Assembly: GCA_001792305.1 (NCBI GenBank) | Contig: MGGH01000023.1 | Coordinates: 34,347 to 98,346, forward strand | Length of the DNA stretch: 64,000 nucleotides | Origin: Candidatus Woesebacteria bacterium RIFCSPHIGHO2_01_FULL_39_23 | Lineage (GTDB): Bacteria > Patescibacteriota > Microgenomatia > UBA8517 | Reading direction: 5' to 3' | Shown: piece after piece, positions 36,341 through 54,605 of the stretch | Position numbering within the stretch: position 1 is the stretch's first letter | How the letters are laid out: every line of letters starts with the position of its first letter | The notes under the pieces: model-generated | Told to the model about the DNA's origin: nothing | The model's database searches: none | Seen by the model: the letters and a program-made list of their open reading frames with translations, nothing else | Translations under genes and position numbers: made by a program

Positions 36341-36825
36341 TGAAAAAAGACAAGATAAAAAACAAAGAAATAGTAGCGGAACTTAAGGGGCAACTAGCAA
36401 GAGCACTAGCAGATTACGACAACTTAAGAAAAAGGACTGAGGAAGAACGCCAGGCACTTTACAAGTATTCTAGCCAGAGAATAATAGCCAGGTTTTTGCC
36501 GCTTTTTGATATGTTTGAGGCTGCCCAGAATCACATTAACGATTCCGGATTAGCAATTGCGATTAAGGAATGTAGAGACCTGCTTAAAGAGGAAGGTGTT
36601 AATGAAATTCAGGCAGGAGAAGGAGAGCAATTTGATGAAAATACTCAAGATGTGGTAGAGGTTGTAGAAGGTGGTCAAAAGGGTAAAATTAAGGAAGTTG
36701 TTTTAAAAGGTTACAAATATAGCGACGGCTACATAATAAGGCATGCTAAAGTAAAAGTATATGGAGGTTTGACAGAAAAGCAAAAAGACGAGAATATAAA
36801 AAAGGAGGAAAAAAATAATGGGTAA
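36337..36825 (+). CDS. grpE: Nucleotide exchange factor GrpE
   Basis: [13 protein letters not shown]...[14 protein letters not shown]. Confidence 0.85.
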
Positions 36826-38740
36826 AATAATTGGTATTGATCTCGGAACTACAAATAGTGTTGTTGCCGTGATGGAAGGCGGCAGACCAAAAGTTATTGC
36901 AGCGGCGGATACTGGACGAAACATTACACCATCTGTTGTCGAGCCTGTCAAAAACCTGGTCGGAGATGTGGCTAAAAGACAAATGATCTTAAACCCCAAA
37001 AATACAATTTATTCGATTAAAAGACTAATGGGAAGAAGGAAGGGAGACGACGAGGTAAAGAGGACAGAGAAAATGGTTCCCTACACAATTACTTCAGGCA
37101 AAGATAGCATGGCGGCGGTTGAAGTGGAAGGAAAGACTTACACTCCCCAGGAAATTTCGGCAATGATTTTGGCTAAGCTTAAGAAAGACGCCGAAACTCA
37201 TCTTGGAGAAAAAGTTGAGCAGGCAGTAATTACAGTCCCCGCCTATTTTGACGACAGCCAGCGCCAGGCAACAAAACAAGCAGGAGAGATTGCGGGCCTT
37301 AAAGTTGAGAGGATAATTAATGAGCCTACAGCAGCTGCTTTAGCATACGGGCTTGATAAGGGAAAATCGGAAAAAATTGCAGTGTATGATCTTGGGGGTG
37401 GAACTTTTGATATTTCAGTCCTTGAGCTGGGTGACGGGGTTTTTGAGGTTAAAGCAACAAATGGAGACACTCATCTTGGTGGAGATGACTTCGACGCAGT
37501 GATTGTTGACTATATAGTAACGGAATTTAAGAAAGAAAACGCGGTTGACCTAAAGGCCGATAAACAAGCGTTGCAAAGAGTCAGAGATGCTGCTGAGAAA
37601 GCAAAGATTGAGCTTTCCGCGGCCTCCGAAATCGAAATAAACCAGCCTTACATTACTCAAAAAGACGGCAACCCCCTTCATTTAACAATGAAGCTAACTC
37701 GTGCCAAGCTCGAGAGCTTGGTTGAAGAGTTAATTGAGAAGACCTTTAAACCAGTTGAATCTTGTCTTAAGGACGCAAAACTTGACCCCCATGACATAAA
37801 CGAAGTGATCTTGGTTGGTGGTATGACCAGGATGCCAAAGGTAATTGAAAGAGTAAAGGAATATTTCGGCAAAGAGGCCAATAAATCAGTCAATCCGGAT
37901 GAAGTAGTTGCAGTGGGTGCAGCGATTCAAGCAGGGGTTTTGGCTGGGGATGTGAAAGATATATTACTTTTGGATGTGACACCATTGACTTTGGGAATAG
38001 AGACTTTGGGGGGAGTTGCGACTCCGATGATAACTAGAAACACGACAATTCCGGCTTCTAAGACTGAAACATTCTCAACTGCTGCTGATAATCAAACTCA
38101 AGTTGAGATTCATGTAACTCAGGGTGAGCGTCCGATGTCGGCCGATAATAAATCATTGGGAAGATTTATTTTGGACGGAATTCCGCCTTCGCCTAGGGGA
38201 GTACCTCAAGTCGAGGTCACATTTGATATCGATGCATCTGGGATACTCAAAGTTACTGCAAAAGATAAAGCGACAGGTAAGAGCCAAAACATTACGATAA
38301 CAGGTGCTGTTGGTTTATCTGATGACGAAGTCAAAAGGATGCAGGAAGAAGCGGAGAAGCACAAAGACGAAGACACTAAAAAGTCGGAACTAATTACTGC
38401 CAGGAATCATGCTGATGCAATGGTAGCTACAGCTGAAAAAGCCTTGAAAGATGCTGGGGATAAAGTCGCCAAAGAAATTAGAGAAAAAGTTGAGGAGAAA
38501 ATTAAAGCAGTTAAGGATGTAAAAGATTCTGATAAGAAAGACGAGATTGAGTCTAAAACAAAAGATCTTTCCGAAACTCTTTCACAAATTGGTCAAGCGA
38601 TGTATTCCTCCACAGCTAAAGCTACGGAGGACAAGGGGGCTACAAAGGGGAAAACCAACGGTCCTGAGCCAGCCGAAGGAAAGAAAGCTCCAAAAGACGG
38701 CGACAAAGCCGAAGCGGAAGAAGGGGAGGTAGTATCATAG
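36818..38740 (+). CDS. dnaK: Chaperone DnaK (Hsp70)
   Basis: [26 protein letters not shown] and the C-terminal lid. Confidence 0.95.
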
Positions 38741-38741
38741 T

Positions 38742-39620
38742 GTGGCAGCAGCGAAAGCAGACTACTACGATATCCTTGGAGTATCAAAAAACTCTTCTCA
38801 GGACGAGATAAAGAAAGCCTATAGAAAGCAGGCTCTGGAATGGCACCCGGACCGCCATAAGGACGACAAAGAGGCAGCAGAGAAGCGCTTCAAAGAAATT
38901 AACGAGGCTTATCAGGTATTATCTGATTCCAAGAAACGTCAGACTTATGACCAATTTGGTCATAGTGCATTTTCTCCTGGAGGTGGATTCGCTGGTCAAG
39001 AAAGTCCTTTTGGACAAGGCGGACAGTATGGGCCATTTACCTATACTTATTATTCAAGTGACGGCGGAAAGGGTTCGCCTTTTGCAAGTTTTGATTTTGG
39101 CGATCCGTTTGACATTTTCGAACAATTCTTCGGAGGATCGCCTTTTAGGCGTGCCCGCGCAAAACCCCGTTATAGTATGACGATTGCTTTTGATGACGCG
39201 GTACGTGGGGCAACAAAGGAAGTTCAGATAGAAGGCAAGAAAAGAAAAATTAAAGTCCCCGCAGGAGTTGATGATGGTTCAAGAATAGAATTTGATGATT
39301 TTATTCTTTCAATAAACGTTAAACCAGATCCGAAATTTGAGCGAGACGGAGCAGATATTTATTTTAGAGAGAATATCAGTTTTACGACAGCCGCATTGGG
39401 CGGAGAGGTCGAAGTGCCAACTGTTGATGACAGGGTGAAACTTCGAATCCGCCCAGGGACAAAGTCGGGTACGATGATTCGTCTTCGGGAAAAAGGGATG
39501 CCTAATCTTCGCGGGTCTGGTCGTGGCGACCAATATGTTCGAATTACAGTCGACGTCCCCGAAAGACTCACTGGTGGCCAAAAACGCCTTTTGGAAGAAT
39601 TGAGAAGGGAAGGAATATAA
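38742..39620 (+). CDS. dnaJ: J-domain co-chaperone (DnaJ/CbpA-type) without the Cys-rich zinc-finger domain; GTG start
   Basis: DYYDILGV...HPD, a G/F-rich region and C-terminal domains. There are no CxxCxGxG repeats. Confidence 0.8.
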
Positions 39621-39685
39621 TTTTAAATTGACTTGTGTAATTAAACGATTTAAACTATAGCAGGTTTTGTGGATCAGGAATAATT

Positions 39686-39707
39686 GGTGGGGTGACCCAC
39701 CTTTTTT
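39686..39707 (+). terminator. Rho-independent terminator-like hairpin between dnaJ and nusA
   Basis: GGTGGG-gtga-CCCACC followed by TTTTTT. It ends 8 nt before the nusA ATG. Confidence 0.5.
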
Positions 39708-39715
39708 AATAATTT

Positions 39716-40765
39716 ATGGTAGCGCAAACAGCCAGAACAGAATTTGCTCAGGCTCTCAAAGCAGTTGCTACAGAGCGTGGGCTTGACGTGGAAGTGATCT
39801 TGGAAACAATCAGGCAGGCGATTATTGCTGCTTATAAAAGAGACGCTCGGGAGCAAGGAGAGGAAGGAGAGGAAGCAGAAGAGCTTCAGTACGAAGTAGA
39901 GATTGATCCGGTTAGCGGCGAGGCAAAAATATATTCTTATGAGGAAGGAAAGCATAATAAAAAGAAGGATATTACACCTCCTGGATTCGGGCGGATTGCG
40001 GCCCAAACCGCAAAGCAGGTCATTCACCAGAAAATCAGGGAAGCTGAGAAAGACGCTGTTCTCGAGGAATTTTCCGACAGAGTTGGCTCCTTAATTTCCG
40101 GCATGATCCTTCGTTTTGATGGGCCTAATGTGAGAGTTGATATGGGTAGGACCGAAGGTCTGATGCCAGCCGAGGAGCGAGTACCTAATGAGAGACTTTC
40201 CTTAAGCCAAAGATTGACGTTTTTACTTAAAAATATTGTTGAAGGTCCAAGGGGAAAAGAAGTTATTTTGTCACGCGCGGACCCTGAGTTTGTCAAAAAG
40301 CTTTTTAGCCGGGAAGTGCCGGAGTTGTCATCTGGAAGCATAGAAATAAAGGCAATTGTCAGAGAACCTGGAACCAGGACCAAAATTGCTGTTGTTTCCA
40401 AGCAATCTGGGGTTGACCCCGTTGGCTCTTGTGTCGGCCAAAAAGGTGTGCGGGTGCAGGCAGTTACCAATGAGCTAAACGGTGAGAGAGTAGACATTAT
40501 TCCCTGGACTGATGATCAAAAGGAATTGATTAAGGTAGCCTTGTCCCCCGCCGAAATAGACTCAATCAGTATCATTAAGAGTACTAACACTGCCAAGGTA
40601 GTAGTGCCTGAAGATCAACTTTCAATAGTAATTGGTAAAGAAGGTCAGAATGTGCGCCTGGCAAGTAAACTTGCTGGCGTTAAAATTGATGTAATTTCGT
40701 CAGGAAAGGTTTCGAACAAAAAGCCTGTTAAAGAGAAGCAAGAAGAAAAGCGGAGAGCTAGATAA
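39716..40765 (+). CDS. nusA: Transcription termination/antitermination factor NusA
   Basis: N-terminal EFAQALKAVATERGLDVEVILETIRQAIIAAYKR, then S1 and two KH domains. Confidence 0.85.
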   Translation: MVAQTARTEFAQALKAVATERGLDVEVILETIRQAIIAAYKRDAREQGEEGEEAEELQYEVEIDPVSGEAKIYSYEEGKHNKKKDITPPGFGRIAAQTAKQVIHQKIREAEKDAVLEEFSDRVGSLISGMILRFDGPNVRVDMGRTEGLMPAEERVPNERLSLSQRLTFLLKNIVEGPRGKEVILSRADPEFVKKLFSREVPELSSGSIEIKAIVREPGTRTKIAVVSKQSGVDPVGSCVGQKGVRVQAVTNELNGERVDIIPWTDDQKELIKVALSPAEIDSISIIKSTNTAKVVVPEDQLSIVIGKEGQNVRLASKLAGVKIDVISSGKVSNKKPVKEKQEEKRRAR

Positions 40766-40780
40766 AGAACATGTATCTAG

Positions 40781-42205
40781 GTGCAGAAAGAAATTACTTT
40801 AAATATGAAAAGACCAAGACCACCAATTGTGACTGTTTTAGGCCATGTAGACCATGGAAAGACCACTCTTCTTGACTACATCCGAAAGACATCTCTTGCC
40901 AAAAAGGAAGCCGGTGGAATAACTCAAAATATTGGTGCTTCAGTTATAACTACCCAAAAAGGTCTGCCTCAAGGGGTAGGTAAAGAAATAACTTTTATAG
41001 ATACCCCCGGCCACGCTGCATTTTCGAACATGAGGTCGCGGGGGGTAAAATTGGCTGACATAGCAATTTTAGTTGTCGCTTCAGATGCTGGGGTGAAACC
41101 CCAGACAGAAGAAGCGCTAAATTACATAACAGAAGTTAATGCCCCGTTTATAGTTGCTTTAACAAAAGTAGATTTGCCAAGTGCAGAGATAGAAAAAGTT
41201 AAAGGTGAACTTGAAAAGTTGGGAGTATTATTTGAAGGACGTGGTGGGAATGTTCCGTTAATTGCTGTTTCGGCAAAAACTGGTCAGGGAGTGAATGAAC
41301 TATTGGAAACTATTAGTTTAATGGCTGATGTTGGAGAAATATCTGGAGACGATAAGGCTTCCTTGGAAGCGGTAGTGATTGAAACTTTAAAAGATAACCG
41401 CGGGGTGCTGGTTTCGGTAGTTGTTAAAAACGGCTTGCTTAGAGTTTCAGATACTGTATTTTGCACTGATATCAAGGCTAAAGTAAGGGGTTTATTTAAT
41501 TTTCAAGGGAAAAGCGTTCGAGAAGTTTTTCCCGGGTTTCCCTGCCAAATTTTGGGTTTTTCCCACCTTCCCGAAGTTGGGAGTTTAATAACGACCGAGG
41601 CAACAAAAGTCGAAAAGAAACAATTAGATACTTTTACAGAAGGAACTTTAAACGAAGGTCTACCGATGATTATTAAAGCTGACAATAGCGGCAGTTTAGA
41701 GGCAGTCGTCTCAAATCTTCCCTCAGGAGTGCACGTCGTCTCAAAAGGTGTGGGTGATGTAAATGAGGGTGATATTTTTTTAGCTAAAACCTCAAAAGCG
41801 AATATTTTTACATTTGAAGCCAAAGCAAATAGTAGTGTTCGGAAACTCGGTGAAACAGAAGGGGTTAAAATTTTTGAATTCAAGATCATTTATGAGCTTT
41901 TTGAAGCGTTAGAGAAATTAATTGAAGAAGGAATAGAAAAGATTCTGGGTAAAGCTCGGATTTCGGCAAGCTTCCCTTATGAAAGGAAAAAAGTAGCTGG
42001 TTGCAAGGTATTGGAAGGGAAAATATCAAAAGCGAGTAAGTTAAGGCTTTTTCGTGATGATAATGCTTTGGGGAATGTAAGGGTGATTTCTCTCAAAAAG
42101 GGCAAACTTGACGTTGATGAGGTTGGCCAGGGGGAAGAATTCGGAGTAATTTTTGAGCCCCAGCTTGAATTTAAACCTGGTGATGTGTTACTATCGGTGC
42201 AATAA
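40781..42205 (+). CDS. infB: Translation initiation factor IF-2, compact form
   Basis: [30 protein letters not shown]. Only 474 aa, with no long N-terminal extension. Confidence 0.85.
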
Positions 42206-42207
42206 CT

Positions 42208-43062
42208 ATGGGTGGTCAACTTAAGCCAATTATTGATGGGAGTAAATCGGTATTGCTTCTTTTGCCGGTTAATCCCACTTTTGATACTGTTGCCGGAGGA
42301 CTTGGGATGTATTTGGCCTTGCAATCTCAAAAAGAAGTAAGCATCGCCTGCGAAACGCCCATGACTGTCGAACATAATCGTCTGGTTGGGGTAAATAAGA
42401 TATCCTCGGAAGCTGGCGATAAGAACTTAGTGATAAGATTTAAAAATTACCACGCAAACAATATCGAAAGGGTTAGCTACGATATTGAAAACGGAGAGTT
42501 TCGTTTAACAGTGATACCAAAACCCCGTAACAGCGCCCCTCAAAGAGAACACGTTCATTTGACGTACTCCGGGGTGGCTGCCTCTACACTGTTTCTTATT
42601 GGTGGATCTCACGAGGAACACTTTCCCATGCTTAAGTCTTCGGACGCGGCTAATCTTAAGAAAGTTCATATAGGTGTTCGAAGTTTAAATGTTACAGGTG
42701 GTCAAAATATTATGTCTCTAGCCAGACCCGCTTCATCTGTGTCAGAGCTTGTTGTTCACTTGCTTCGCGAAGCCGAATTTGGCTTGGAGGCGGATGTCGC
42801 GACGAATTTACTCATGGGAATTGAAGAGGAAACTAATAGTTTTACAACACAAGAGGTAACATCCGAGACTTTTGAGATAGTTTCGTATCTTTTGAAATCG
42901 GGTGGACAGAGAAAACCCAAAAATCTTCCGGATTCTAGATTTTTCCCGCCAGGTGCGATTCCCGGAGAGAAACTCCATCCATTGGAGGAAGCGGAAAAAG
43001 GAGATATCCCCAAAGCCTGGATGGAAAAACCCGCGGTTTATAAAGGAACGAGTATCAGTTAG
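42208..43062 (+). CDS. Hypothetical protein, possibly a degenerate DHH/DHHA1 (NrnA/CnpB-like) phosphoesterase
   Basis: Positional analog of the DHH gene that follows infB/rbfA in other bacteria. Motifs are weak (FDTVAGG, GGSHEEH, LKSGGQ). Confidence 0.3.
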   Translation: MGGQLKPIIDGSKSVLLLLPVNPTFDTVAGGLGMYLALQSQKEVSIACETPMTVEHNRLVGVNKISSEAGDKNLVIRFKNYHANNIERVSYDIENGEFRLTVIPKPRNSAPQREHVHLTYSGVAASTLFLIGGSHEEHFPMLKSSDAANLKKVHIGVRSLNVTGGQNIMSLARPASSVSELVVHLLREAEFGLEADVATNLLMGIEEETNSFTTQEVTSETFEIVSYLLKSGGQRKPKNLPDSRFFPPGAIPGEKLHPLEEAEKGDIPKAWMEKPAVYKGTSIS

Positions 43063-43104
43063 TTTGAATTTAACTTAATCTGGGAAAATCTCTCAACTAT
43101 ACAA

Positions 43105-43437
43105 CTATAAAAGCGACGATAGTTTTCTTGTGTCTTTCAAGTTATCGCAATAGCTTTCGTAACGCTTAATTGCTTTATCGCTTTTTTCAATAATCCGGCT
43201 TACTTTATCCGCAATATTATCTCTTCTTTGTTTCAAAGCCTGCATTTCTTGAACGCTGAAAGCTTTGTATTCAGTTTCGCCTGAAACCTCATCCAGTAAA
43301 AAATTAAATGAGCGCTCCGCCGTACGAAGTTGGGCAACGAATTTCGGTTCCGGCGCGTTTTCGGCCTTATCGACCAATCTTTCGAGAAGAGAAATGTAGT
43401 TTTCCAAAAATTTCCGATAAGAGTCTATTTTATCCAT
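43105..43437 (-). CDS. Hypothetical alpha-helical protein (island ORF 1)
   Basis: 110 aa, no recognisable family. Confidence 0.4.
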   Translation of the reverse strand: MDKIDSYRKFLENYISLLERLVDKAENAPEPKFVAQLRTAERSFNFLLDEVSGETEYKAFSVQEMQALKQRRDNIADKVSRIIEKSDKAIKRYESYCDNLKDTRKLSSLL

Positions 43438-43520
43438 GCAGCAACATAATAAAGTTTTACGGGGTGGAAATCAATATTGATATGCTTTAAAATTTAGTCA
43501 ATTGTTTAGCGTAGACGGCT

Positions 43521-44276
43521 ATGAGTTCAAAATACGTTCAGTTTGTTTTTCCCCAATTTCCCAAACGCTCACTGGGTGGAAAACATGGTTCCGAATTTAT
43601 CGACTCATTAAAAAAACTACTTCCCAAAAAAGCTAAAACAAGTTTATTTCTACCTTTCCCTAAAAACTCCTCAACACCTGTATTTCAAGAAAGTCCAACC
43701 ACGGCCGAGATTTCCCCAGCGATTATCAGTAGCGAGCTTGGTTATGTCCAAGTTAGTGTTGGCTTAGATAAAAACGATTTATTTGGAAGAGTATTTTCGG
43801 TCAGAGATGGAGTTTCCGACGGCCTGCACCGTCTTAATTTTTATCTTATTTTCTCGTTTAATGATATCGTTCATTATTCCAGTCAGACCAACCCACGGTT
43901 CTTTGACAAAGGGGGCATGAGTCCCTTAAGAATAAATCCGCCAGTTCGGGAGTATGCAGTAATTTCAGACAAGGTTAACAATAAGGATTATCATTTTCCA
44001 CCCGTTCCCGGCTTGGCAGAATTCTCCGATTCCACATTCGACGCCGAAGCTTACAGTTTGGAATATATGGATGCCAGATACGGCACATCATCAATAATGC
44101 ATGAAACTATCAAGTCGGGATTATATTGTTTAACTGTCGAACTGGATTTTTCCCCCAAAAGTCAGCTCCTAGCCTACTCCAAGCAATTTGAAGAAATTTT
44201 AATACCCCTGTTTGGAGATGATTACGTTCTGGTTCCCAAACCCCCCCAATCCGAGTTTTCTAAAATCACTCCCTAA
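43521..44276 (+). CDS. Hypothetical protein (island ORF 2)
   Basis: 251 aa, no recognisable motifs. Confidence 0.4.
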   Translation: MSSKYVQFVFPQFPKRSLGGKHGSEFIDSLKKLLPKKAKTSLFLPFPKNSSTPVFQESPTTAEISPAIISSELGYVQVSVGLDKNDLFGRVFSVRDGVSDGLHRLNFYLIFSFNDIVHYSSQTNPRFFDKGGMSPLRINPPVREYAVISDKVNNKDYHFPPVPGLAEFSDSTFDAEAYSLEYMDARYGTSSIMHETIKSGLYCLTVELDFSPKSQLLAYSKQFEEILIPLFGDDYVLVPKPPQSEFSKITP

Positions 44277-44327
44277 GTGCCACCCTAGTTGTTTTATAAC
44301 ATAAGTAGTGAAATAATTTGATAGGGA

Positions 44328-44591
44328 GTGAAAGTGATGGAAGGAGGAGACGCGGGAGTTAGGGAAGGTTTGGGGAGTGGTCAAGAAACTGCTCGTGAAA
44401 CTCGGGCGAGGGTTGACGCTGGAGCGAGGTTGAGAGATGCCGCGGATTTTGATCTCAGTCGGGCTCAAGCACGGCTCGCTAAACCTGACTTGAATGCGAC
44501 AATTAGAGTTGGCCGAACGCCAACTGAAACGGGTAAACTGCAAAGATTATCTCAAGCTCTTAAGATGTTGGTTCAAGGAAATAGAGGCTAG
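44328..44591 (+). CDS. Hypothetical Arg/Ala-rich low-complexity ORF in a locally GC-rich segment. Coding status is uncertain; it could be a structured RNA.
   Basis: 87 aa. MKVMEGGDAGVREGLGSGQETARETRARVDAGARLRDAADFDLSRAQARLAK. Local GC is roughly 55-58%. Confidence 0.25.
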   Translation: MKVMEGGDAGVREGLGSGQETARETRARVDAGARLRDAADFDLSRAQARLAKPDLNATIRVGRTPTETGKLQRLSQALKMLVQGNRG

Positions 44592-44638
44592 GATTTTGTT
44601 CGTGATCTTTAAGCAGCGGGCTATACTTTAAAATGTAA

Positions 44639-44983
44639 ATGGCTTACGATATCCATATCACTCGCAGAAATAATTGGTTTGACAAAGAAGGGCCGGTTAT
44701 TTCTGAAGAAGAATGGAAAAGGCTAGTCGGTGAGGATTCTGAATTAAAACTTACAGATTATGCCGAGTCCTCACTGAAAAATAAACCGTTTGAAATAGTA
44801 AGACTAAAAAAACACCTCATGGGGCTGTTGAGTGACCCAATAACAAAAAAAGACTTTTATTTTGTATATTCTCCAGAGAAAATAACTGTGTCGGATGCTG
44901 AAAGGAATGTCGTTGAAAAAATGAAGCAGGTTGCTCAAAAGTTGGATGCAAAAGTACAGGGAGATGAAGGAGAACTCTATTAA
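44639..44983 (+). CDS. Hypothetical protein (island ORF 4)
   Basis: 114 aa. MAYDIHITRRNNWFDKEGPVISEEEWKRLVGEDSEL. Confidence 0.4.
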   Translation: MAYDIHITRRNNWFDKEGPVISEEEWKRLVGEDSELKLTDYAESSLKNKPFEIVRLKKHLMGLLSDPITKKDFYFVYSPEKITVSDAERNVVEKMKQVAQKLDAKVQGDEGELY

Positions 44984-45068
44984 AGATCTGATTTGATACG
45001 ACCTGGAAAATTTTAGCCGAAAGGTTGGGTCGGTGTGAAAGTGCGGAGTAAGGTTGATATTTAAGGCA

Positions 45069-45548
45069 CTAGAATTTATAAACAACTCGCATCAGGTGAG
45101 TTGGCGTATCTTCAGCTTGCGAACCGATAATTCTTCTTAAGGCTCTGCGAGCCGGGTTTGTTTCAGGATTTTTGTCGCTGTGTTCACCGTCAATTGTTCC
45201 GTGATTTCGTAAAGCTAGAGTGGTTATCTCTCCTGAAGCTTCTATAATCAGATTGAAATCATCTCCATACAGTTGTACTTCTCTGCGTGCTATTCCCTGC
45301 ATTTTATCTCTTTGAATACCTGTAAGTATCTGTTCGCTGGCCATTGCACCTACTATGTCTCCTTCTCTAAATTCGTCTTCCTGAATGCCTTGATACAATT
45401 CTGCTTCGTCTGGGTCATGAATTTGGATTTCGGCCCCTTTTTCTCTCCACTCCGGAATAATTCCAACCACGGCACTCTCAAAAGTAACTGCGTTTTGCTG
45501 GCTCTCAACGTGAGGTAAACTGAATTCTCCCGACGAATCTAGATTCAT
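45069..45548 (-). CDS. Hypothetical protein (island ORF 5)
   Basis: 159 aa. Overlaps the upstream ORF 6 by 4 nt, so probably an operon. Confidence 0.4.
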   Translation of the reverse strand: MNLDSSGEFSLPHVESQQNAVTFESAVVGIIPEWREKGAEIQIHDPDEAELYQGIQEDEFREGDIVGAMASEQILTGIQRDKMQGIARREVQLYGDDFNLIIEASGEITTLALRNHGTIDGEHSDKNPETNPARRALRRIIGSQAEDTPTHLMRVVYKF

Positions 45549-46339
45549 TGTAGTGAAGATTTTAGTGTCTCAAGACTTTTGATTCTGACATCTGTCGTGT
45601 TGATGGTGTGCATTAACCTACCCCGTTCTGTTGTCGATTGCAGAGCTTTTAGCCGTAGGATTTCAGCGTTAATTGTTAAAATTTGTCCTGTTTCAGTCAT
45701 ACCTTGTTTTGATGCCTTAAGCCTTGCGATTTCTTGTTTTAACCTTTTGTATTCGTCATCTCCGGGTAGTTTTCCGATTGGTTTTAGGCTACCCCTTGCC
45801 GCATCAAATCTTGCTTTTAATTCCCCAATCTCTCTTTCAATCTCCAGTTTTACTGGTTCACGATTTCCCATTCTGAGGTTTGATGCCATATTGGTTAATC
45901 GTGCAAGTTCTGTTTTTGCGGCACGATCATTTGGGTCCATTACCGAGTCCGCCAAGGCTTGAAGCCGTCTTTGTTCCAAATAACTTTCCGGGGTAGATAA
46001 ATTAGGAAGAGGTCTGCGTTCTGATGCTCTAGGCTGTGATACTTCCGGCTGTCTGCTTAAATCGACCACATGTCTTTCTCCACCTTCATAATAGTAGCCC
46101 TTCCCTCTTCTCTCGTCGTCATCAAAGGGAGTTACATTTACTCGTTTCCCGCCGATTACCATCTCGACTCTTTCTGTTGGTATTGAACCAGCGGCTGATG
46201 GGGCACCCGATCTTGGGGATTCAACCACTGAAGGTCGGGGAGTTACTTCTCTTATTTGATCGCCTCTGACCTCGACTGTTATAGGTCTGGGTGGGCCTTT
46301 TGTTGGGTCCCATTCTGTTTGAGAATCGATCGTCGACAT
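45545..46339 (-). CDS. Hypothetical Pro/Arg/Glu-rich coiled-coil protein (island ORF 6)
   Basis: 264 aa. Higher GC than the window background. Confidence 0.4.
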   Translation of the reverse strand: MSTIDSQTEWDPTKGPPRPITVEVRGDQIREVTPRPSVVESPRSGAPSAAGSIPTERVEMVIGGKRVNVTPFDDDERRGKGYYYEGGERHVVDLSRQPEVSQPRASERRPLPNLSTPESYLEQRRLQALADSVMDPNDRAAKTELARLTNMASNLRMGNREPVKLEIEREIGELKARFDAARGSLKPIGKLPGDDEYKRLKQEIARLKASKQGMTETGQILTINAEILRLKALQSTTERGRLMHTINTTDVRIKSLETLKSSLQ

Positions 46340-46487
46340 ATTTTATGCTTTATAAGCGACTGTACCAATTGGTTGATTAGAATTATAAACTATTTTGTAT
46401 TTTTAAAAAAGTGTGATATCATTCCAAGTGTTGTTTGACTAGGGATACGGACTGTCCGACCTACTACTTGGTTTTACAACAATAAAA

Positions 46488-46754
46488 ATGGCATTATCAA
46501 AGGACGAAAAGCTTGATATTATAAAAAAGTTTGCTATTGAAAAAGGCGACACTGGTTCTCCTGAAGTACAAGTGGCTCTTCTTTCGGCTCAGATAGAAAA
46601 GCTTGCCAAGCATTTGAAAGATCACGCTAAAGATGTACACTCAAGAAGAGGACTTTTGTCGATGGTCGCCAAAAGAAGGAGGCTTCTTAATTACCTTCTT
46701 AAAAAAGACGAGGCTCGCTACAAAGAGCTTGTCAAGAAGCTTAAATTGAAGTAA
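46488..46754 (+). CDS. rpsO: 30S ribosomal protein S15
   Basis: [57 protein letters not shown]. Confidence 0.9.
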
Positions 46755-46762
46755 TAATTTTT

Positions 46763-49024
46763 TTGATGAAAGAATTAAAAGAAAGTATTGAAATTGGAGG
46801 GAAAACGCTCACCCTCTCTACAGGAAAATTGGCGGGTCAGTCAAATGGTGCTGTAGTTGTTTCTATTGGTGAGACAGTAGTACTATGCACAGCTGTTTCC
46901 TCGGTTATGGATACTGACCGCGACTATTTTCCCTTGACTGTTGACTACATGGAGAGGCTTTATGCAGGGGGTAGAATTAAGGGAAGCCGTTGGATAAAAA
47001 GGGAAGGCAGGCCCACCGATGAAGAAATATTGACCTCAAGGCTTATTGACCGCTCCATAAGGCCGCTCTTCCCCTACGCTTATAAAAAAGAAGTGCAAGT
47101 GACTGCAACTGTTTTATCAGTCGATTTGGTCAACAGTCCTGACATTGCAGCCTGTATAGGTGCCTCAACGGCTATAGTGATTTCTGATATTCCGTTTAAA
47201 GAGCCAGTTGTGACCGTAAGAGTTGGCAAGGTCAACGACAACCTTACTCTTTTCCCGACGGTTGAAGAAATAAACAAGGGAGAATTGGATGTAACTGTTA
47301 GTGTTACTAAAAATGCTGTTGTGATGATCGAGGCTGGAGCCAAAGAGGTCGACGAAAAGACTATTGCGAAGGCAATCGACTTAGCCGTTAGCGAAGGCGG
47401 AAAAGTTATTGACCTTATCGAAAAGTTTGCCAAAAAAGCAGGGAGTGCCAAACAGAAGTACTCCAACGATAAAGTTGACTTGGAAACTAAAAAAAGAATC
47501 GAGAAAGTGGTTGGCAACAAACTTGCCTCCCTTGTGACCAAAATGGCGACAAAAGAAGGGAGTTTTGCTGATTATGAACAACTAAGAAATGCGGTTGTAG
47601 ACGAGTTTGGAAATGAAGAAAAAAGTAAAGCAATTGAGGGTTTTGAAGATCTTTTTAAAGAAAGGGTTAGGCAAATGATTTTAGCTGGAAAGCGGCCTGA
47701 CGGCCGTAACCACGACCAAATTAGAGATTTAACCAGCGAAGTGTCAATTTTGCCAAGGACTCATGGCTCGGCAGTTTTTGCCAGAGGCCAGACACAAGTC
47801 TTAAGTGTTACTACTCTTGGATCGCATACTTTCGAGCAGTTGCTGGAAAGCGCTGAGGGTGAGGAGTCCAAACGCTACATTCATCATTACTCTATGCCTC
47901 CTTACGCAACGGGAGAAGTGGGAAAGGTTGGTTATCCGAATAGGCGGGAAATTGGCCACGGAGCACTTGCTGAGCGCGCCTTGATACCTGTGATTCCATC
48001 AGAAGAAGACTTTCCCTACACAATTAGAGTGGTTTCGGAAGTAACAAGCTCTAACGGCTCAACTTCAATGGCCTCGGTTAGTGGTAGCACGTTGTCATTG
48101 ATGGATGCGGGAGTTCCAATAACTAACCCCGTATCTGGGATCGCAATGGGGCTTGTTATCGAAAACGACAAAAAATACGCCGTCCTGACTGATATTGTGG
48201 GAATTGAAGATATTAGTGGTGACATGGATTTTAAAGTAGCGGGCACCAAAAACGGAATTACTGCGCTGCAATTGGATGTGAAAACTTTAAAGTTGACATT
48301 ACCGATTCTCGAGGCCGCTTTAAAACAAGCAAGGAAAGCAAGAGAGAAGATTTTGGAAGCGATGCTTGCGACTTTAGCTGAGCCAAGAAAGCAGGTTTCT
48401 AAGTTTGCACCCAAGATAAAAGTCATAAAGATCGATCCTTTCAAAATTGGAGAGCTTATTGGCCCTGGTGGAAAGACTATCAAAGGCATAATCGCGAGAA
48501 CAGGTGCTGATGTGGATGTTGAGGATGACGGCACAGTGCATGTAACTGCAGTTGATGAATCTGCAATGCTTAAAGCAATTGATGAAGTAAATAAGCTTAC
48601 CAAAGAAATTTTGCCAAACGAAATTTATGAAGGCCAGGTCAAAAGAGTGGAAAATTATGGAGCGTTTGTGGAGATTCTGCCGGGAAGAGAAGGATTGGTT
48701 CATGTTTCAGATATGTCGGAAGCTTTTGTTAAGGATCCCTCAACCCTGGTTAAAGTTGGCGACAAAGTAAGCGTGCGAGTCAAAGGGATTGATAATTTAG
48801 GGAGGCTTAATCTTTCAATGGTGATGGATCCCTCGTTTGATAAGCAGAAAGAAGAAAGGGATCACGACAGAAGCCGAGGTAGGAGTGGAATGGACAGGGG
48901 AAGGGGTCGCGAGGAGAGGTTTGGAAGAAGAAGGGATGGTGGTTTCAGGGACCGTACTGGGGGACCACATTTTCCCGCCAGTAACCTACTCGAACCCAAA
49001 GAGCGCAGAAACTTCCGAGAATAA
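46763..49024 (+). CDS. pnp: Polyribonucleotide nucleotidyltransferase (PNPase)
   Basis: Two RNase PH domains, KH (GPGGKTIKGI) and S1 domains, and an Arg/Gly-rich tail. Confidence 0.9.
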   Translation: MMKELKESIEIGGKTLTLSTGKLAGQSNGAVVVSIGETVVLCTAVSSVMDTDRDYFPLTVDYMERLYAGGRIKGSRWIKREGRPTDEEILTSRLIDRSIRPLFPYAYKKEVQVTATVLSVDLVNSPDIAACIGASTAIVISDIPFKEPVVTVRVGKVNDNLTLFPTVEEINKGELDVTVSVTKNAVVMIEAGAKEVDEKTIAKAIDLAVSEGGKVIDLIEKFAKKAGSAKQKYSNDKVDLETKKRIEKVVGNKLASLVTKMATKEGSFADYEQLRNAVVDEFGNEEKSKAIEGFEDLFKERVRQMILAGKRPDGRNHDQIRDLTSEVSILPRTHGSAVFARGQTQVLSVTTLGSHTFEQLLESAEGEESKRYIHHYSMPPYATGEVGKVGYPNRREIGHGALAERALIPVIPSEEDFPYTIRVVSEVTSSNGSTSMASVSGSTLSLMDAGVPITNPVSGIAMGLVIENDKKYAVLTDIVGIEDISGDMDFKVAGTKNGITALQLDVKTLKLTLPILEAALKQARKAREKILEAMLATLAEPRKQVSKFAPKIKVIKIDPFKIGELIGPGGKTIKGIIARTGADVDVEDDGTVHVTAVDESAMLKAIDEVNKLTKEILPNEIYEGQVKRVENYGAFVEILPGREGLVHVSDMSEAFVKDPSTLVKVGDKVSVRVKGIDNLGRLNLSMVMDPSFDKQKEERDHDRSRGRSGMDRGRGREERFGRRRDGGFRDRTGGPHFPASNLLEPKERRNFRE

Positions 49025-50105: not shown

Positions 50106-50618
50106 ATGAAAGTAGCGGTATTGTCAGACATACACGATCATATTTGGAACTTGGAAAAAGCAAAAAAAATTATTAAAAAAGAAGGCTCGGGAGCTGTAAT
50201 TTTCTGTGGTGATATGTGTGCTCCCTTTACGACAAGTTTACTATCCGAAACTGGGCTCCCTACGTATACTGTTTGGGGTAATGTTGACGAAGATCACTGG
50301 GCGATGGTTCAAAAAGGAGGGGAGAACCTTATAGCTGTCCCCCTTACACAAGAGTTTCATGAAGTGGAGCTGAATGAGCGTAAAATTGCATTTTGTCACT
50401 ATCCAATGCTTGGAAAGTTGTTGGCTGAAACTAGGTATTACGATGCAGTTTTCCATGGCCATACGCATATGCAGTATCACAAGATGGTTGGAAATACATT
50501 AGTTGCAAACCCAGGAGCGGTTTGTGGAATTGTCAAAGGCCGCGAGGGTTTGGCTAGTTTCATGATTTATGACACCGATAATAACACTGTTCAATTATTT
50601 AAACTAGGCAATGGGTAA
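50106..50618 (+). CDS. Metallophosphoesterase (YfcE/MPP family)
   Basis: VLSDIHDH...FCGDMC...GHTH. Confidence 0.7.
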   Translation: MKVAVLSDIHDHIWNLEKAKKIIKKEGSGAVIFCGDMCAPFTTSLLSETGLPTYTVWGNVDEDHWAMVQKGGENLIAVPLTQEFHEVELNERKIAFCHYPMLGKLLAETRYYDAVFHGHTHMQYHKMVGNTLVANPGAVCGIVKGREGLASFMIYDTDNNTVQLFKLGNG

Positions 50619-51253: not shown

Positions 51254-52903
51254 ATGTTACGTTTTATTGTAATATCTGGGACAACCGGGGTAACTGAGAA
51301 TTGTTTTATTTACGAGTGGAACGGTCAAATGCTGATTGTGGATTGTGGAGTGGGATTTCCCGACCCCGAGATGCTTGGGGTGGATCTTGTGATCCCAGAC
51401 TTTACTTATATAAAGAAAAACAAAGAAAAATTAAAAGGTATCCTTATTTCCCACGCCCATGAAGACCACTTAGGGTCATTACCGTTTCTTTTTAAAGAAG
51501 TGGAAGCTCCTATTTACTCGACAAAATTAGTTGCGGGTTTCATTGAAGACAAGTTTGCTGATTACGGTATGAAAATTCCCAAAATAAACGTATTTAATCC
51601 TGAAAGAGACTCCTTTACTGTTGGGCCTTTTAAAATAAATCCTTTTAGAGTTTCTCACTCTGTTCCTGATGGAGTAGGATATTCAATTGACACACCGGTA
51701 GGCAGAATTTTCCATGTCCCTGACTATAAATTTGACTGGACACCTGTCGATGGTAGACCTTTTGATATTTCAAAAGCAGCAGTACTTGCAAGTGGTGGTG
51801 TTTTAGCCTTAGCCTCGGACTGCTTGGGATCAACGACGGAAGGTTATACAAAGTCGGAGAAAGAAATCGAAACAAAAGTTGAAATTATTGCGAAGTCTGC
51901 CTCAAAAAAAATCCTTTTCACGACAATATCCTCCAACATTTCAAGGATTAAACAAGCCTTTAACGTCGCGGCAAAACTTGGTAGAAAAGTAGTAATTGTT
52001 GGCAGATCCATCGAAAAGAAAGTGGAAATTGCTCGAAGGTTAGGTTATTTGGACTATCCGAAAGACTTGATTATTTCACCAAAAGACGCGAAAAGACTTC
52101 CCGAAAATGGTGTGTTTTATGTGATATCGGGTAGCTATGGACAAATTGGTAGTGCTTTGTATAGGGTCGCGATTTCAGATCATCAATTTATTAGTGTTAA
52201 CGCAAATGATGTAGTAATTTTTTCAGGCGATCCTGCTCCTCCCGGATCGAAAGACAATGTGGATTTTGTGGTAGACAGGTTAATTGAGCTTGGGGTCGAC
52301 GTGCATTATTATGATACCCAGGATGATCTTCATGTCTCCGGTCACGGCTCGCAGGAGGACATAAAAACTCTTTTTGGAATTGTTAGGCCAAAATACTTTA
52401 TACCAATAGGGGGTACAATTAGGCACATGCGAGCCTACAAAAGCATAACTCACGATTTCGGGTCTCCTCGAGATAATGTTTTTGAACTAAAAGACGGCGA
52501 AGTACTTGGGATTGACAGTAAGGGTGCGAGACTTCTACCTGAAAAGGTTCCTTCAAAAAGCGTAATGGTTGACGGGCTTGGGGTTGGAGATGTAGGTAAC
52601 ATAGTGCTCCGGGACAGAAATGTTCTTGCCAATGAAGGAGTTGTAATTGTTGTTATAGGGGTTGCTAAAGACACTAAAAAGTTAAATACGACCCCAGATA
52701 TTATTAGTCGTGGATTTGTTTTCAAAGGCGCAAAAGAGTCGCTACTGCGGGATGCCAGCTTTGGTCTAAAAAAAGAGCTTGAGAGAATGAAAGATTTAGA
52801 CGCAAAACTTGCAAGAAATGTAACAATCGATTTTTTGGAAAAGTTTTTCCACAAAAAAATTGCCCGCCACCCCATGATTTTACCAGTCGTAGTTGAAGTT
52901 TAA
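51254..52903 (+). CDS. rnj: Ribonuclease J (MBL/beta-CASP)
   Basis: ISHAHEDHLGSLPFL, a beta-CASP region and a C-terminal domain. 549 aa. Confidence 0.8.
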   Translation: MLRFIVISGTTGVTENCFIYEWNGQMLIVDCGVGFPDPEMLGVDLVIPDFTYIKKNKEKLKGILISHAHEDHLGSLPFLFKEVEAPIYSTKLVAGFIEDKFADYGMKIPKINVFNPERDSFTVGPFKINPFRVSHSVPDGVGYSIDTPVGRIFHVPDYKFDWTPVDGRPFDISKAAVLASGGVLALASDCLGSTTEGYTKSEKEIETKVEIIAKSASKKILFTTISSNISRIKQAFNVAAKLGRKVVIVGRSIEKKVEIARRLGYLDYPKDLIISPKDAKRLPENGVFYVISGSYGQIGSALYRVAISDHQFISVNANDVVIFSGDPAPPGSKDNVDFVVDRLIELGVDVHYYDTQDDLHVSGHGSQEDIKTLFGIVRPKYFIPIGGTIRHMRAYKSITHDFGSPRDNVFELKDGEVLGIDSKGARLLPEKVPSKSVMVDGLGVGDVGNIVLRDRNVLANEGVVIVVIGVAKDTKKLNTTPDIISRGFVFKGAKESLLRDASFGLKKELERMKDLDAKLARNVTIDFLEKFFHKKIARHPMILPVVVEV

Positions 52904-52940
52904 AGATTTTACCTTCAGAGCAGGTAGGCTATAATAGCCC

Positions 52941-53720
52941 TTGATGAAAGTCAAAAGAGCCACTAAAAAACTGGTAATTGTTGCTGACGATTTTGGGTTG
53001 GCCAAGGAAATTAACGAGGGGATACTTCGGGCATGTCGTGAAGGTTTTGTTACCGAATTTTCGTTGATGCTTAAGTCTCCGTCTACCCAACACGCCGTCG
53101 ATATTATTAAAAAATGTAAGCTAAGAGATGTAGGTATTCATCTTCTTTTAGTGGGTTTTGACGATATCAAAAGGATGTTTAGACGAAGTGATTATGTTGA
53201 ACTTTTTAAAAACAAAAACTATCAAGAAATTCAGAAACTGGCAGAATTGGAGTTACGGCTTTTTGAAAAGCTGATAGGCAAAAAACCAACACATATCATA
53301 CCGCAGTATGGTATCCACGGTAATCTAAAACTACTCGATTTTTTGTTGGGATACGCAAAGAAATACGATATACCCATGCGGCTGCCTCGGACAACTTTGG
53401 GAGAAAAATTTGGAGAAAATTATGCAGCAGAGATAATGCTTAGAAGAAGTGGAGTAAGAACGACAAAATATCTTTTTGGACATGTTTTGGGTAGTAATTT
53501 GTTGAGAATTGAGAGAGAGTTTATTGACGAACTTGCCAGAGTAAAAGGTGGTGAAAGCGCCGAGGTTCTTACTCACCCGGGGTATTTTGATGAAGAAGTG
53601 CTTAAGCTCACCTCTTTGAATTATGAACGTGCTCGCGATTTAGCCATGTGTTTAGATAAAAAATTTGAAGAGAAGATATTAAATTTAGGATATCATTTGG
53701 TTAGTTTCAGCCAAATATGA
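52941..53720 (+). CDS. YdjC/ChbG-family carbohydrate deacetylase-like protein (paralog 1)
   Basis: LVIVADDFGLAKEINEGILRACREGFVTEFSLM. Confidence 0.6.
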   Translation: MMKVKRATKKLVIVADDFGLAKEINEGILRACREGFVTEFSLMLKSPSTQHAVDIIKKCKLRDVGIHLLLVGFDDIKRMFRRSDYVELFKNKNYQEIQKLAELELRLFEKLIGKKPTHIIPQYGIHGNLKLLDFLLGYAKKYDIPMRLPRTTLGEKFGENYAAEIMLRRSGVRTTKYLFGHVLGSNLLRIEREFIDELARVKGGESAEVLTHPGYFDEEVLKLTSLNYERARDLAMCLDKKFEEKILNLGYHLVSFSQI

Positions 53721-54520
53721 AGAAGAAATTAATTATAACGGCACATGACTTTGGATACTTTGATTCAATAAACAGAGGAATAATTTACTCTTTGAAACAT
53801 AAGAATAACATAATAACGGAGTTGTCCTTGCTCGCAAACACGCCTGGAAGTTTGGAAGCTGCCAAGTTCTCTAGAAGTACAAAAATCTCAGTAAGTTTGA
53901 ATACTAACTTTACATCTCAAAAACCCCTGTCAAGGGGTGTCCCTTCTCTGGTTGGTAAAGACGGCAACTTTTTGAAAGTAGACACTAAAACATGGGACTT
54001 TTCGGTAATTGATCGATTTAATGAAAAAGACGTTACTAGGGAGCTAGATGCCCAATGGGATTGGTTTACCGAAAATGTTGGCAGGAAACCAAGCGCTATT
54101 TTATCTAAAAAAAACGAGTACGGAGACCCAAAAATACTTATGCCTGTTGTATCGAAAGCAAAAAAAGAGGGTGTACCTATTCGGGTTCCCGTTTGGATGT
54201 GGAAGGAGAATTACGGAGCCCAGTCTTATGTGGAACAGGAAGGGGTTAAATCTACCCAAAACATTTTTCTAGGACTTAAAGAGTGGAAAGGAAAATTTGG
54301 CTATGATTTGATAGAAGATATTGACCAGTTAATTGCTGACATCAAGACTAAAGAAGGTGTATCTGAATTGCTGGTATTTCCAGGATTTGTAGACAAAGAG
54401 CTGATGGATAAAAGTACTTTGAATTGGCAGAGAGGACAATTTTTGCAAGTATTGGACAACAATGAGGTTATTAGTAAAATCAAAGATAACTTCGAACTAA
54501 TTAGTTTTAGGGATTTGTAA
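53717..54520 (+). CDS. YdjC/ChbG-family protein (paralog 2)
   Basis: LIITAHDFGYFDSINRGIIYSLKHKNNIITELSLL. Overlaps paralog 1 by 4 nt. Confidence 0.55.
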   Translation: MKKKLIITAHDFGYFDSINRGIIYSLKHKNNIITELSLLANTPGSLEAAKFSRSTKISVSLNTNFTSQKPLSRGVPSLVGKDGNFLKVDTKTWDFSVIDRFNEKDVTRELDAQWDWFTENVGRKPSAILSKKNEYGDPKILMPVVSKAKKEGVPIRVPVWMWKENYGAQSYVEQEGVKSTQNIFLGLKEWKGKFGYDLIEDIDQLIADIKTKEGVSELLVFPGFVDKELMDKSTLNWQRGQFLQVLDNNEVISKIKDNFELISFRDL

Positions 54521-54605
54521 TTAAGGTCTGGTGCATACTCCTTCTCCTTTTTGGGTAAACAAGGATATAGCAACTTCCCTGACAAGTTGGGTATAATGGT
54601 GTGGT

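Follow-up and report, generated by a model that had tools for sequence, protein, structure and literature searches.

Orphan immunity genes are well documented in bacteria (PMC3150448; PMC9086364; bioRxiv 10.1101/471110), and the MADS system has been described as an eight-gene operon (bioRxiv 10.1101/2023.03.30.534895). Plasticity and defence-island hotspots, which have a fixed position and a content that differs per lineage, are another known kind of locus. In the canonical gene order nusA-infB-rbfA-truB-(ribF)-rpsO-pnp, the genes between infB and rpsO are rbfA and truB, in some cases followed by ribF. Here, we analysed this neighbourhood in a 64-kb stretch of DNA (the window; 64,000 nucleotides of contig MGGH01000023.1) from Candidatus Woesebacteria bacterium RIFCSPHIGHO2_01_FULL_39_23, a member of the candidate phyla radiation (CPR). 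Coordinates are window positions unless another locus is named. Between a DHH-like gene and rpsO lie six open reading frames (ORFs), o1 to o6, in three transcription units (one reverse, three forward, two reverse), as a preliminary description of the window, made from the sequence alone, had stated. The same six-gene arrangement was called on 10 further contigs of the same species. On balance, we favour the reading that this cluster is a clade-restricted, recombining hotspot for accessory genes between nusA-infB-DHH and rpsO-pnp, not a recently acquired foreign island or a remnant of rbfA and truB.

Gene content and ancestry of the infB-rpsO junction

Related loci were obtained with a PNPase-based scan of GTDB species representatives with poorly conserved peptides, which gave four loci, a thin sampling. 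Loci L016 and L017 shared more than 12 flanking genes with the window in the same order. In L017 the junction was empty (infB, DHH, 120 bp, rpsO, pnp), and in L016 it held one unrelated gene on the reverse strand, encoding a membrane-anchored protein of 183 aa. The ancestral state was therefore infB-DHH-rpsO, to which the six genes were added, and an insertion at a conserved junction is supported. The earlier statement that rbfA and truB usually sit at this position agreed with an unrelated bacterium (L018), in which the order was infB-rbfA-truB-ribF-rpsO-pnp.

Three variants of the cluster were compared. Variant A is that of the window, variant B occurs in a close relative (L001–L005), and variant C is represented by L023, L026 and L027. 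The latter corresponds to RBG_16_41_13-type Woesebacteria genomes and ACD_52C00026, with PNPases 72–75% identical to that of the window. The features of variant A, whose locus tags run from A2961_03165 to A2961_03200, and the ATPase gene of variant C are as follows.

42208–43062 (+): DHH/NrnA-like gene, A2961_03165, left flank after infB; conserved left edge of the junction
43063–43104: left junction spacer, 42 bp, from the DHH-like gene to the 3' end of o1
43105–43437 (−): o1, 110 aa, A2961_03170, core orphan, predicted to be helical and soluble
43521–44276 (+): o2, 251 aa, A2961_03175, accessory orphan, in lineages A and B only
44337–44591 (+): o3, 84 aa, core orphan, Ala/Gly/Arg-rich; ATG at 44337, GGGAG 7 nt upstream
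44639–44983 (+): o4, 114 aa, A2961_03185, accessory, in A and B, absent from C
45069–45548 (−): o5, 159 aa, A2961_03190, core orphan, net charge −14
45545–46339 (−): o6, 264 aa, core orphan, fastest-evolving of the set
46340–46487: right junction and upstream region of rpsO
46488–46754 (+): rpsO (S15), right flank; NCBI name 30S ribosomal protein S15, PF00312 on matching gene calls
46763–49024: pnp, 3' of rpsO
L026:10763–11893 (variant C; same strand as o1, upstream of it): c376, 376-aa P-loop ATPase

All three lineages contained o1, o3, o5 and o6, which form the core, while o2, o4, a 227-aa gene and the gene of a HerA-like ATPase were variable. Variant B had all six genes at unchanged lengths between flanks of ~96% nucleotide identity to the window, and ~770 bp with the extra 227-aa gene, located between o6 and rpsO, replaced 94 bp of the window (46344–46438; blastn). 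In variant C, o2 and o4 were absent, and the o2 slot upstream of o1 held the ATPase gene c376 on the other strand. No remnants of the swapped cargo (the 227-aa gene, c376, o2 and o4) were found in the other variants. Since the core occupied the same site in B and C and had native composition, its acquisition was old and clade-level rather than recent. According to the preliminary description, related genomes carrying the same ORFs at the same site with similar composition would point to old, lineage-specific genes; the core was indeed kept in B and C, and it was absent from L016 and L017.

Ancestry was measured at four-fold degenerate sites of conserved residues. Between A and C, the proportion of differing sites was 0.655 (686/1048) in eight flanking genes, near saturation, compared with 0.396 (38/96) in o1, o3 and o5 together (Fisher p = 1.3e-6 vs the flanks). 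The boundaries were sharp, with a value of 0.67 for the last third of the DHH-like gene and one of 0.72 across PNPase codons 1–100. The value for rpsO (0.41) was akin to that of the island core, and no contiguous stretch of 96 sites in the flanks fell below 0.56. Between A and B, the flanks and o2-o3-o4 differed at 0.05–0.11 of the sites, o1 at 0.30, o5 at 0.29 and o6 at 0.46. Synonymous divergence was thus decoupled from the flanks in both directions, from which we infer allele exchange between related lineages; the data suggest that cluster alleles passed through the conserved flanks. With its varying gene content and decoupled synonymous-site ancestry, the segment behaves like accessory DNA that is open to exchange.

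The flanks were also compared. The DHH-like gene followed infB in L016 (48% identity), L017 (45%) and L026 (81%). It had no Pfam match and only weak NCBIfam matches to NrnA/diphosphatase models, confined to residues ~160–233, and its sequence marks it as a strongly diverged protein of the DHH/NrnA type that is specific to the lineage. The NusA and IF2 proteins encoded at 39716–42205 were 349 and 474 aa long, vs 443 and 879 aa in L018. Reduced proteins are typical of CPR bacteria, and the short NusA and IF2 fit this pattern. A dnaK-dnaJ pair preceded nusA in the window (36818–40765), in L016 and in L017. In variant C (L026:14523–17327), unrelated ORFs preceded nusA in place of this pair; the left synteny block thus also breaks within the clade.

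Additional differences were observed to the right of the junction. A Metallophos gene (50106–50618) was absent in L017, and an unrelated 224-aa ORF was found instead in L016. Two YdjC genes after RNase J (~52900–54606) were absent in L016, L017 and L026. With these two further variable slots within 20 kb, small insertions and deletions between core genes therefore appear to be routine in the lineage, and even the highly reduced Woesebacteria genomes would retain small, recombining slots for accessory genes between their core operons; here, three or more such slots lie within 20 kb.

Within the cluster, the ORF list gave a GTG start for o3 at 44328, whereas the gene callers and both relatives used the ATG at 44337. 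The start of o5 overlapped the stop of o6 (ATGA). A TATGCTTTAAAAT-like motif recurred upstream of o2 and o4 (43481–43496 and 44622–44637) and, on the other strand, by the start of o6 (46344–46355). The motif could be a promoter element of the −10 type, but at 12–16 nt its recurrence is within chance expectation.

Composition, coding status and similarity searches

The region had been described as a higher-GC island, which was not confirmed. Its GC content was 42.0% vs 39.3% for the window, at the 83rd percentile of windows of the same size, and it was no richer than the adjacent dnaK-nusA-infB block (~42–47%). The GC content at third codon positions (GC3) of the six genes was 33–40%, around the window mean of 36%, and the region lay at the 62nd percentile for the Karlin dinucleotide delta* and at the 72nd for tetranucleotide distance. 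In variant C, the island had 40.9% GC vs 43.3% for L026. The sole truly GC-rich stretch was ~200 bp within o3 (44335–44535), with a GC content of 0.555, the window maximum at that scale. By codon position, o3 had a GC1 of 0.64, a GC2 of 0.52 and a GC3 of 0.375; the excess lies in the first two positions and reflects the high Ala, Gly and Arg content of the protein. An antisense ORF of 114 aa (44199–44543, reverse strand) overlaps o3 and the end of o2. With a GC3 of 0.60 and aberrant codon usage, it was rejected as a gene and considered an artefact of the GC-rich o3 sequence. The encoded proteins had been called Arg/Glu/Pro-rich, which was correct for o6 (97th percentile of combined Arg, Glu and Pro content) and for o3 and o5, both enriched, and incorrect for o2 and o4. 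The composition of the cluster is native to the host. This result is chiefly corrective: the supposed GC-rich foreign island is native, and the evidence for insertion consists of synteny and synonymous-site ancestry.

Hallmarks of mobility were also absent. Pfam searches detected no integrase, transposase or recombinase domain in any ORF, and no tRNA target was present in the 64 kb. The longest direct repeats spanning the junction measured 11–12 nt, which is chance level, and att-like flanking repeats were rejected on this basis. Of the earlier proposal that the six genes are horizontally acquired cargo, the insertion at a conserved site stands, and the varying content agrees with it; the compositional argument fails, and neither mobility hallmarks nor a recent origin is supported.

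The six proteins could not be assigned to a known family, as had been noted before, and searches with Pfam, PHROGs, PADLOC and NCBIfam gave no meaningful match for any of them. PADLOC returned nothing below E 0.001 for the six, and PHROGs a single coiled-coil-type match (E 0.008). Matches of o1 to Pfam were all sub-threshold, and those of o6 to Pfam and PHROGs were weak and of the coiled-coil type. In o6, the N-terminal part is rich in Pro and Arg, a GGKRVNVTPFDDDERRGKGYYY block is conserved, and the C-terminal half is probably a coiled coil. With o2 as the query, phmmer run exhaustively against 1.84 billion representatives retrieved only o2 itself and one spurious repeat protein. In 5.8 billion proteins, o5 had three clusters only and o6 two matches only, all from the same clade. 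By tblastn, 50,697 phage records (INPHARED) held no match for any of the six genes or the 227-aa gene, and 72,556 plasmid records (PLSDB) none for o1, o2, o3, o5, o6 or the 227-aa gene. IMG/VR scans revealed no relative of o2, o5 or o6. None of the six proteins had transmembrane-like segments, and no paralogy among the island genes was found. Structural resources added little: o2 had no PDB sequence match, PDB sequence and BFVD searches were uninformative for the cluster proteins, and the AlphaFold2 model of o5 was unusable (predicted local distance difference test score, pLDDT, 47). By these searches, o1, o2, o3, o5 and o6 are clade-restricted orphans.

We consider it unlikely that the cluster is a remnant of a prophage or a recent foreign island that encodes anti-phage defence or a toxin system. 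The cluster is native in GC3 and in its dinucleotide and tetranucleotide signatures, and an integrase, transposase, tRNA and att-like repeat are all missing. In addition, the six proteins had no meaningful PADLOC or PHROGs match, INPHARED and PLSDB contained no relative of o1, o2, o3, o5 or o6, and IMG/VR none of o2, o5 or o6. The core was common to lineages with PNPases 72–75% identical, and the island is therefore not recent. The observations that speak for a foreign island are the empty junction of L017 and the different occupant in L016, the variation in gene content between close relatives, the immunity-like nature of o4, the similarity of c376 to PADLOC mad8 (E 1.4e-12) and Pfam DUF87/HerA, and a weak match of the 183-aa protein of L016 to PD-T4-6 (E 6e-4). 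A lone mad8-like ATPase in another lineage does not, however, amount to a MADS system. Of the possibilities raised earlier, a phage remnant is not supported, and a defence or toxin module survives only in weakened form, through the immunity-like o4 and the mad8-like c376 of variant C.

Comparison of the variants indicated selection on all six genes. The ratio of non-synonymous to synonymous substitution (dN/dS) was 0.11–0.29 for the six genes between the window and variant B, and 0.11–0.37 for the core genes o1, o3, o5 and o6 between the window and variant C. For o1, dN/dS was 0.11, with 89% identity in B and 74% in C. Values of 0.16–0.23 were obtained for both o3 (96% identity in B, 70% in C, with the MEGGDAG start kept) and o5 (76% and 68%). 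For o2 the ratio was 0.29 vs B, and for o6 it was 0.25–0.37, with identities of 65% in B and 41–43% in C. Each of the six ORFs is a real gene that is under purifying selection and encodes a soluble protein.

Purifying selection on all six would also be expected of old, vertically inherited, lineage-specific housekeeping genes, perhaps translation or ribosome factors replacing rbfA, truB and ribF. The location between translation operons, where L018 has rbfA-truB-ribF, is in line with this idea, as is the finding that rbfA, truB and ribF were not detected in the window or related loci. Similarly, the A–C identity of o1, o3 and o5 (68–74%) resembled that of IF2 and PNPase (68–75%). However, the genes were absent from L016 and L017 despite the same flanking synteny, three of the four core genes were opposite in strand to the flanking operons, genes were gained and lost between near-identical strains, and synonymous divergence was decoupled from the flanks. 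Neither Pfam nor phmmer gave any similarity to RbfA or TruB: no RBFA, TruB_N or FAD_syn/Flavokinase domain was found in the six ORFs (Pfam, E ≤ 1), and phmmer queries with RbfA, TruB and RibF of L018 matched no ORF in the window or in L016, L017 or L026. We therefore regard the housekeeping explanation as doubtful. The possibility that o2, which has a similar length and position, is a diverged TruB was rejected as well, as there was no Pfam or phmmer signal and no homologue in the 1.84 billion representatives.

That the ORFs are wholly or partly non-coding, with o3 perhaps a structured RNA and the others chance ORFs in a spacer, was suggested by the short, GC-rich o3 under a longer antisense ORF (44199–44543) and by the lack of a family assignment for all six; this explanation is effectively refuted by the substitution patterns, with dN/dS well under 1 in the annotated frames of all six and lengths and start codons kept in B and C, and it conflicts with a GC excess of o3 confined to codon positions 1 and 2, with the lack of any Rfam or tRNA match in the region even at E ≤ 1, and with prediction of the same genes by independent gene callers on more than 15 contigs. 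A structured RNA at o3 was likewise rejected, given its clear coding signature and no Rfam match at gathering score or E ≤ 1 and no tRNA or tmRNA. Across the whole window, no Rfam family reached its gathering score and no tRNA was detected in the 64 kb.

The o4 family and HerA-like ATPases

Homologues of o4 with 37–43% identity were found on unrelated metagenome contigs and in Paraburkholderia. The family shared the invariant motifs MxYxxHIxxRxNWFD and AxVQGDxxExY, also given as MAYDIHITRRNNWFD and KLDAKVQGDEGE.Y. A hidden Markov model (HMM) of the family retrieved plasmid-borne members in Variovorax, Paenibacillus, Streptomyces, Paraburkholderia, Pantoea, Pseudomonas and E. coli (E 1e-16 to 1e-33). 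The nearest homologues, in L020, L021 and L022 (Logan SRR22387954, SRR22387830 and SRR22387808), started 12, 2 and 10 nt, respectively, after the stop of a co-oriented gene for a protein with an EC869-like C-terminal domain. Among PDB sequences, a profile of that domain matched 4g6u_A, the EC869/TA271 CdiA-CT DNase (E 6.7e-8), and 4zqu_A, the toxin of YpIII (E 1.2e-3). Against Pfam PF21111 (gathering score 27), the domain in L021 scored 36.7 bits. The EC869 residues D198, S209 and K211, which are listed as catalytic in PMC9086364, were aligned in the domains upstream of the o4 homologues. In Paenibacillus, the o4 homologue was located at the tail of an Rhs locus, downstream of an Rhs protein with a weak PF21111-like C-terminus. 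Orphan copies occurred in integron, integrative and conjugative element (ICE) and insertion sequence (IS) contexts.

The predicted fold of o4 is a small alpha/beta protein-binding sandwich, with resemblance also to the CdiI protein 4g6v_B. The family profile had no match among PDB sequences at E ≤ 1, for seven family members Pfam gave no consistent family, and NCBIfam gave none for o4. Based on the position directly downstream of toxin domains, the small size, the predicted binding-type fold and the orphan copies on mobile DNA, o4 is a probable orphan immunity gene. The toxins it would counter are probably EC869-type PD-(D/E)XK nucleases. A widespread, unannotated small-protein family with no Pfam model can thereby be proposed as the immunity partner of these toxins. 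Neither HMM nor tblastn searches of the 64 kb detected an EC869-like domain. The small core protein o3 had been considered as a truncated EC869-like toxin C-terminus because of an I..GR.TP....L motif; this was rejected, since its local alignment was equal to that of shuffled sequences (p 0.2–0.7) and the hhalign probability was 0.2%.

One orphan copy lay on a P. aeruginosa plasmid (CP080283; L030:4947–5309), where the first cassette of a class 1 integron, between intI1 and the genes aacA4 and aac(3)-VIa, encoded an o4-family 'hypothetical protein'. It may be an immunity gene that moves together with resistance cassettes.

The Logan metagenome contigs L020 (3625–6888) and L022 (1–3028) had a recurring four-gene arrangement, in the order toxin, o4-family protein, a conserved protein of 144–159 aa and a membrane-anchored DUF87/HerA and TrwB-like ATPase. 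The toxin was a protein of 503 aa whose C-terminus resembled the EC869 nuclease and in whose N-terminal part no trafficking domain could be recognised. These loci may, on the basis of their gene order and domains, encode a type-IV-like toxin delivery system. The ATPase c376 of variant C contained a Walker A motif and matched Pfam DUF87/HerA with 27.5 bits, above the gathering score. Its ATPase domain was homologous (28% over 134 aa, E 6e-10) to that of the ATPase encoded after the toxin and immunity genes of L022, which offers a speculative link between the cargo types, and it did not have the membrane-anchored N-terminal part of the L022 protein.

Proposed mechanism and comparison with known systems

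We propose that a small hotspot is fixed at the infB-DHH/rpsO boundary in a small group of Woesebacteria. The four-gene orphan core (o1, o3, o5 and o6) would stay in place as the cargo slots turn over and leave no remnants, and cluster alleles would pass between related lineages by homologous recombination via the conserved flanks. Where o4 is present, its product would bind an EC869-type Zn-dependent PD-(D/E)XK DNase toxin that arrives from neighbouring cells, and so neutralise it. The core genes might also act in conflict between cells or against invaders. This is a weak best guess, prompted by the fast evolution of o6, the exchange of alleles, the acidic/basic o5-o6 pair and the adjoining conflict-type cargo. 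A more specific and speculative version is that the core is an undescribed, Woesebacteria-specific conflict module, spread by recombination at the rpsO junction and recruiting conflict cargo such as o4-type immunity proteins and an ATPase resembling HerA or type IV coupling proteins (T4CP). We give this version little credence. If true, the genomes would directly document the participation of ultra-small CPR bacteria in contact-dependent toxin warfare and in defence against it.

Several points weigh against the recombining hotspot with an immunity gene as part of its cargo. Three island-bearing lineages and two island-free relatives are the whole sample. The low A–C divergence of the core is based on 96 sites only and could reflect synonymous constraint instead of exchange. 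Five of the six genes have no function that can be shown. For o4, two of the three toxin domains scored 24.8 and 24.6 bits against PF21111, just under its gathering score of 27, and six of the ten o4-family contexts had no toxin nearby. Moreover, to our knowledge Woesebacteria probably do not have the outer-membrane receptors used by classical contact-dependent inhibition (CDI), and we know of no route by which EC869-type toxins are delivered to CPR bacteria.

The locus can be compared with four kinds of described systems. It shares the flanking genes nusA, infB, rpsO and pnp with the canonical nusA-infB-rbfA-truB-(ribF)-rpsO-pnp neighbourhood. Unlike that neighbourhood, the order in this lineage was ancestrally infB-DHH-like-rpsO without rbfA and truB, as in L017, and three ORFs are on the opposite strand.

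Among HerA/VirD4-like (DUF87) ATPases, including PADLOC mad8, the matching protein is c376, whose gene belongs to variant C and not to the window. In contrast to MADS, none of the other seven MADS genes was present beside c376.

Like orphan cdiI and rhsI products, o4 is a soluble protein of ~115 aa whose nearest homologues are encoded directly 3' of an EC869-type CdiA-CT/Rhs-CT nuclease domain. As for orphan cdiI (PMC3150448, PMC9086364) and the immunity arrays of acquired interbacterial defence (AID) clusters (bioRxiv 10.1101/471110), no toxin lies alongside it in this region, nor beside the copies on several mobile elements. Unlike the solved CdiI proteins and the Pfam and NCBIfam immunity families, with which it has no sequence similarity, o4 stands apart in sequence. 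The locus further differs from known orphan-immunity loci in that cdiBA, Rhs, type VI secretion system (T6SS) and recombinase genes are missing from its surroundings, five of the six genes lack such a signature, and the host belongs to the CPR.

With plasticity and defence-island hotspots, the cluster has in common a fixed position, a per-lineage content, swaps without remnants and decoupled allele ancestry, and some variants likewise carry conflict-type cargo (o4; the mad8/HerA-like c376). In contrast to such hotspots, it spans only 3.3 kb and has no mobility genes, compositional signature or recognised defence system, and its four-gene core, conserved across variants, is untypical of them. 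The locus falls among known kinds, as a plasticity hotspot and, for o4, a probable orphan immunity gene; the current understanding of both stays in place.

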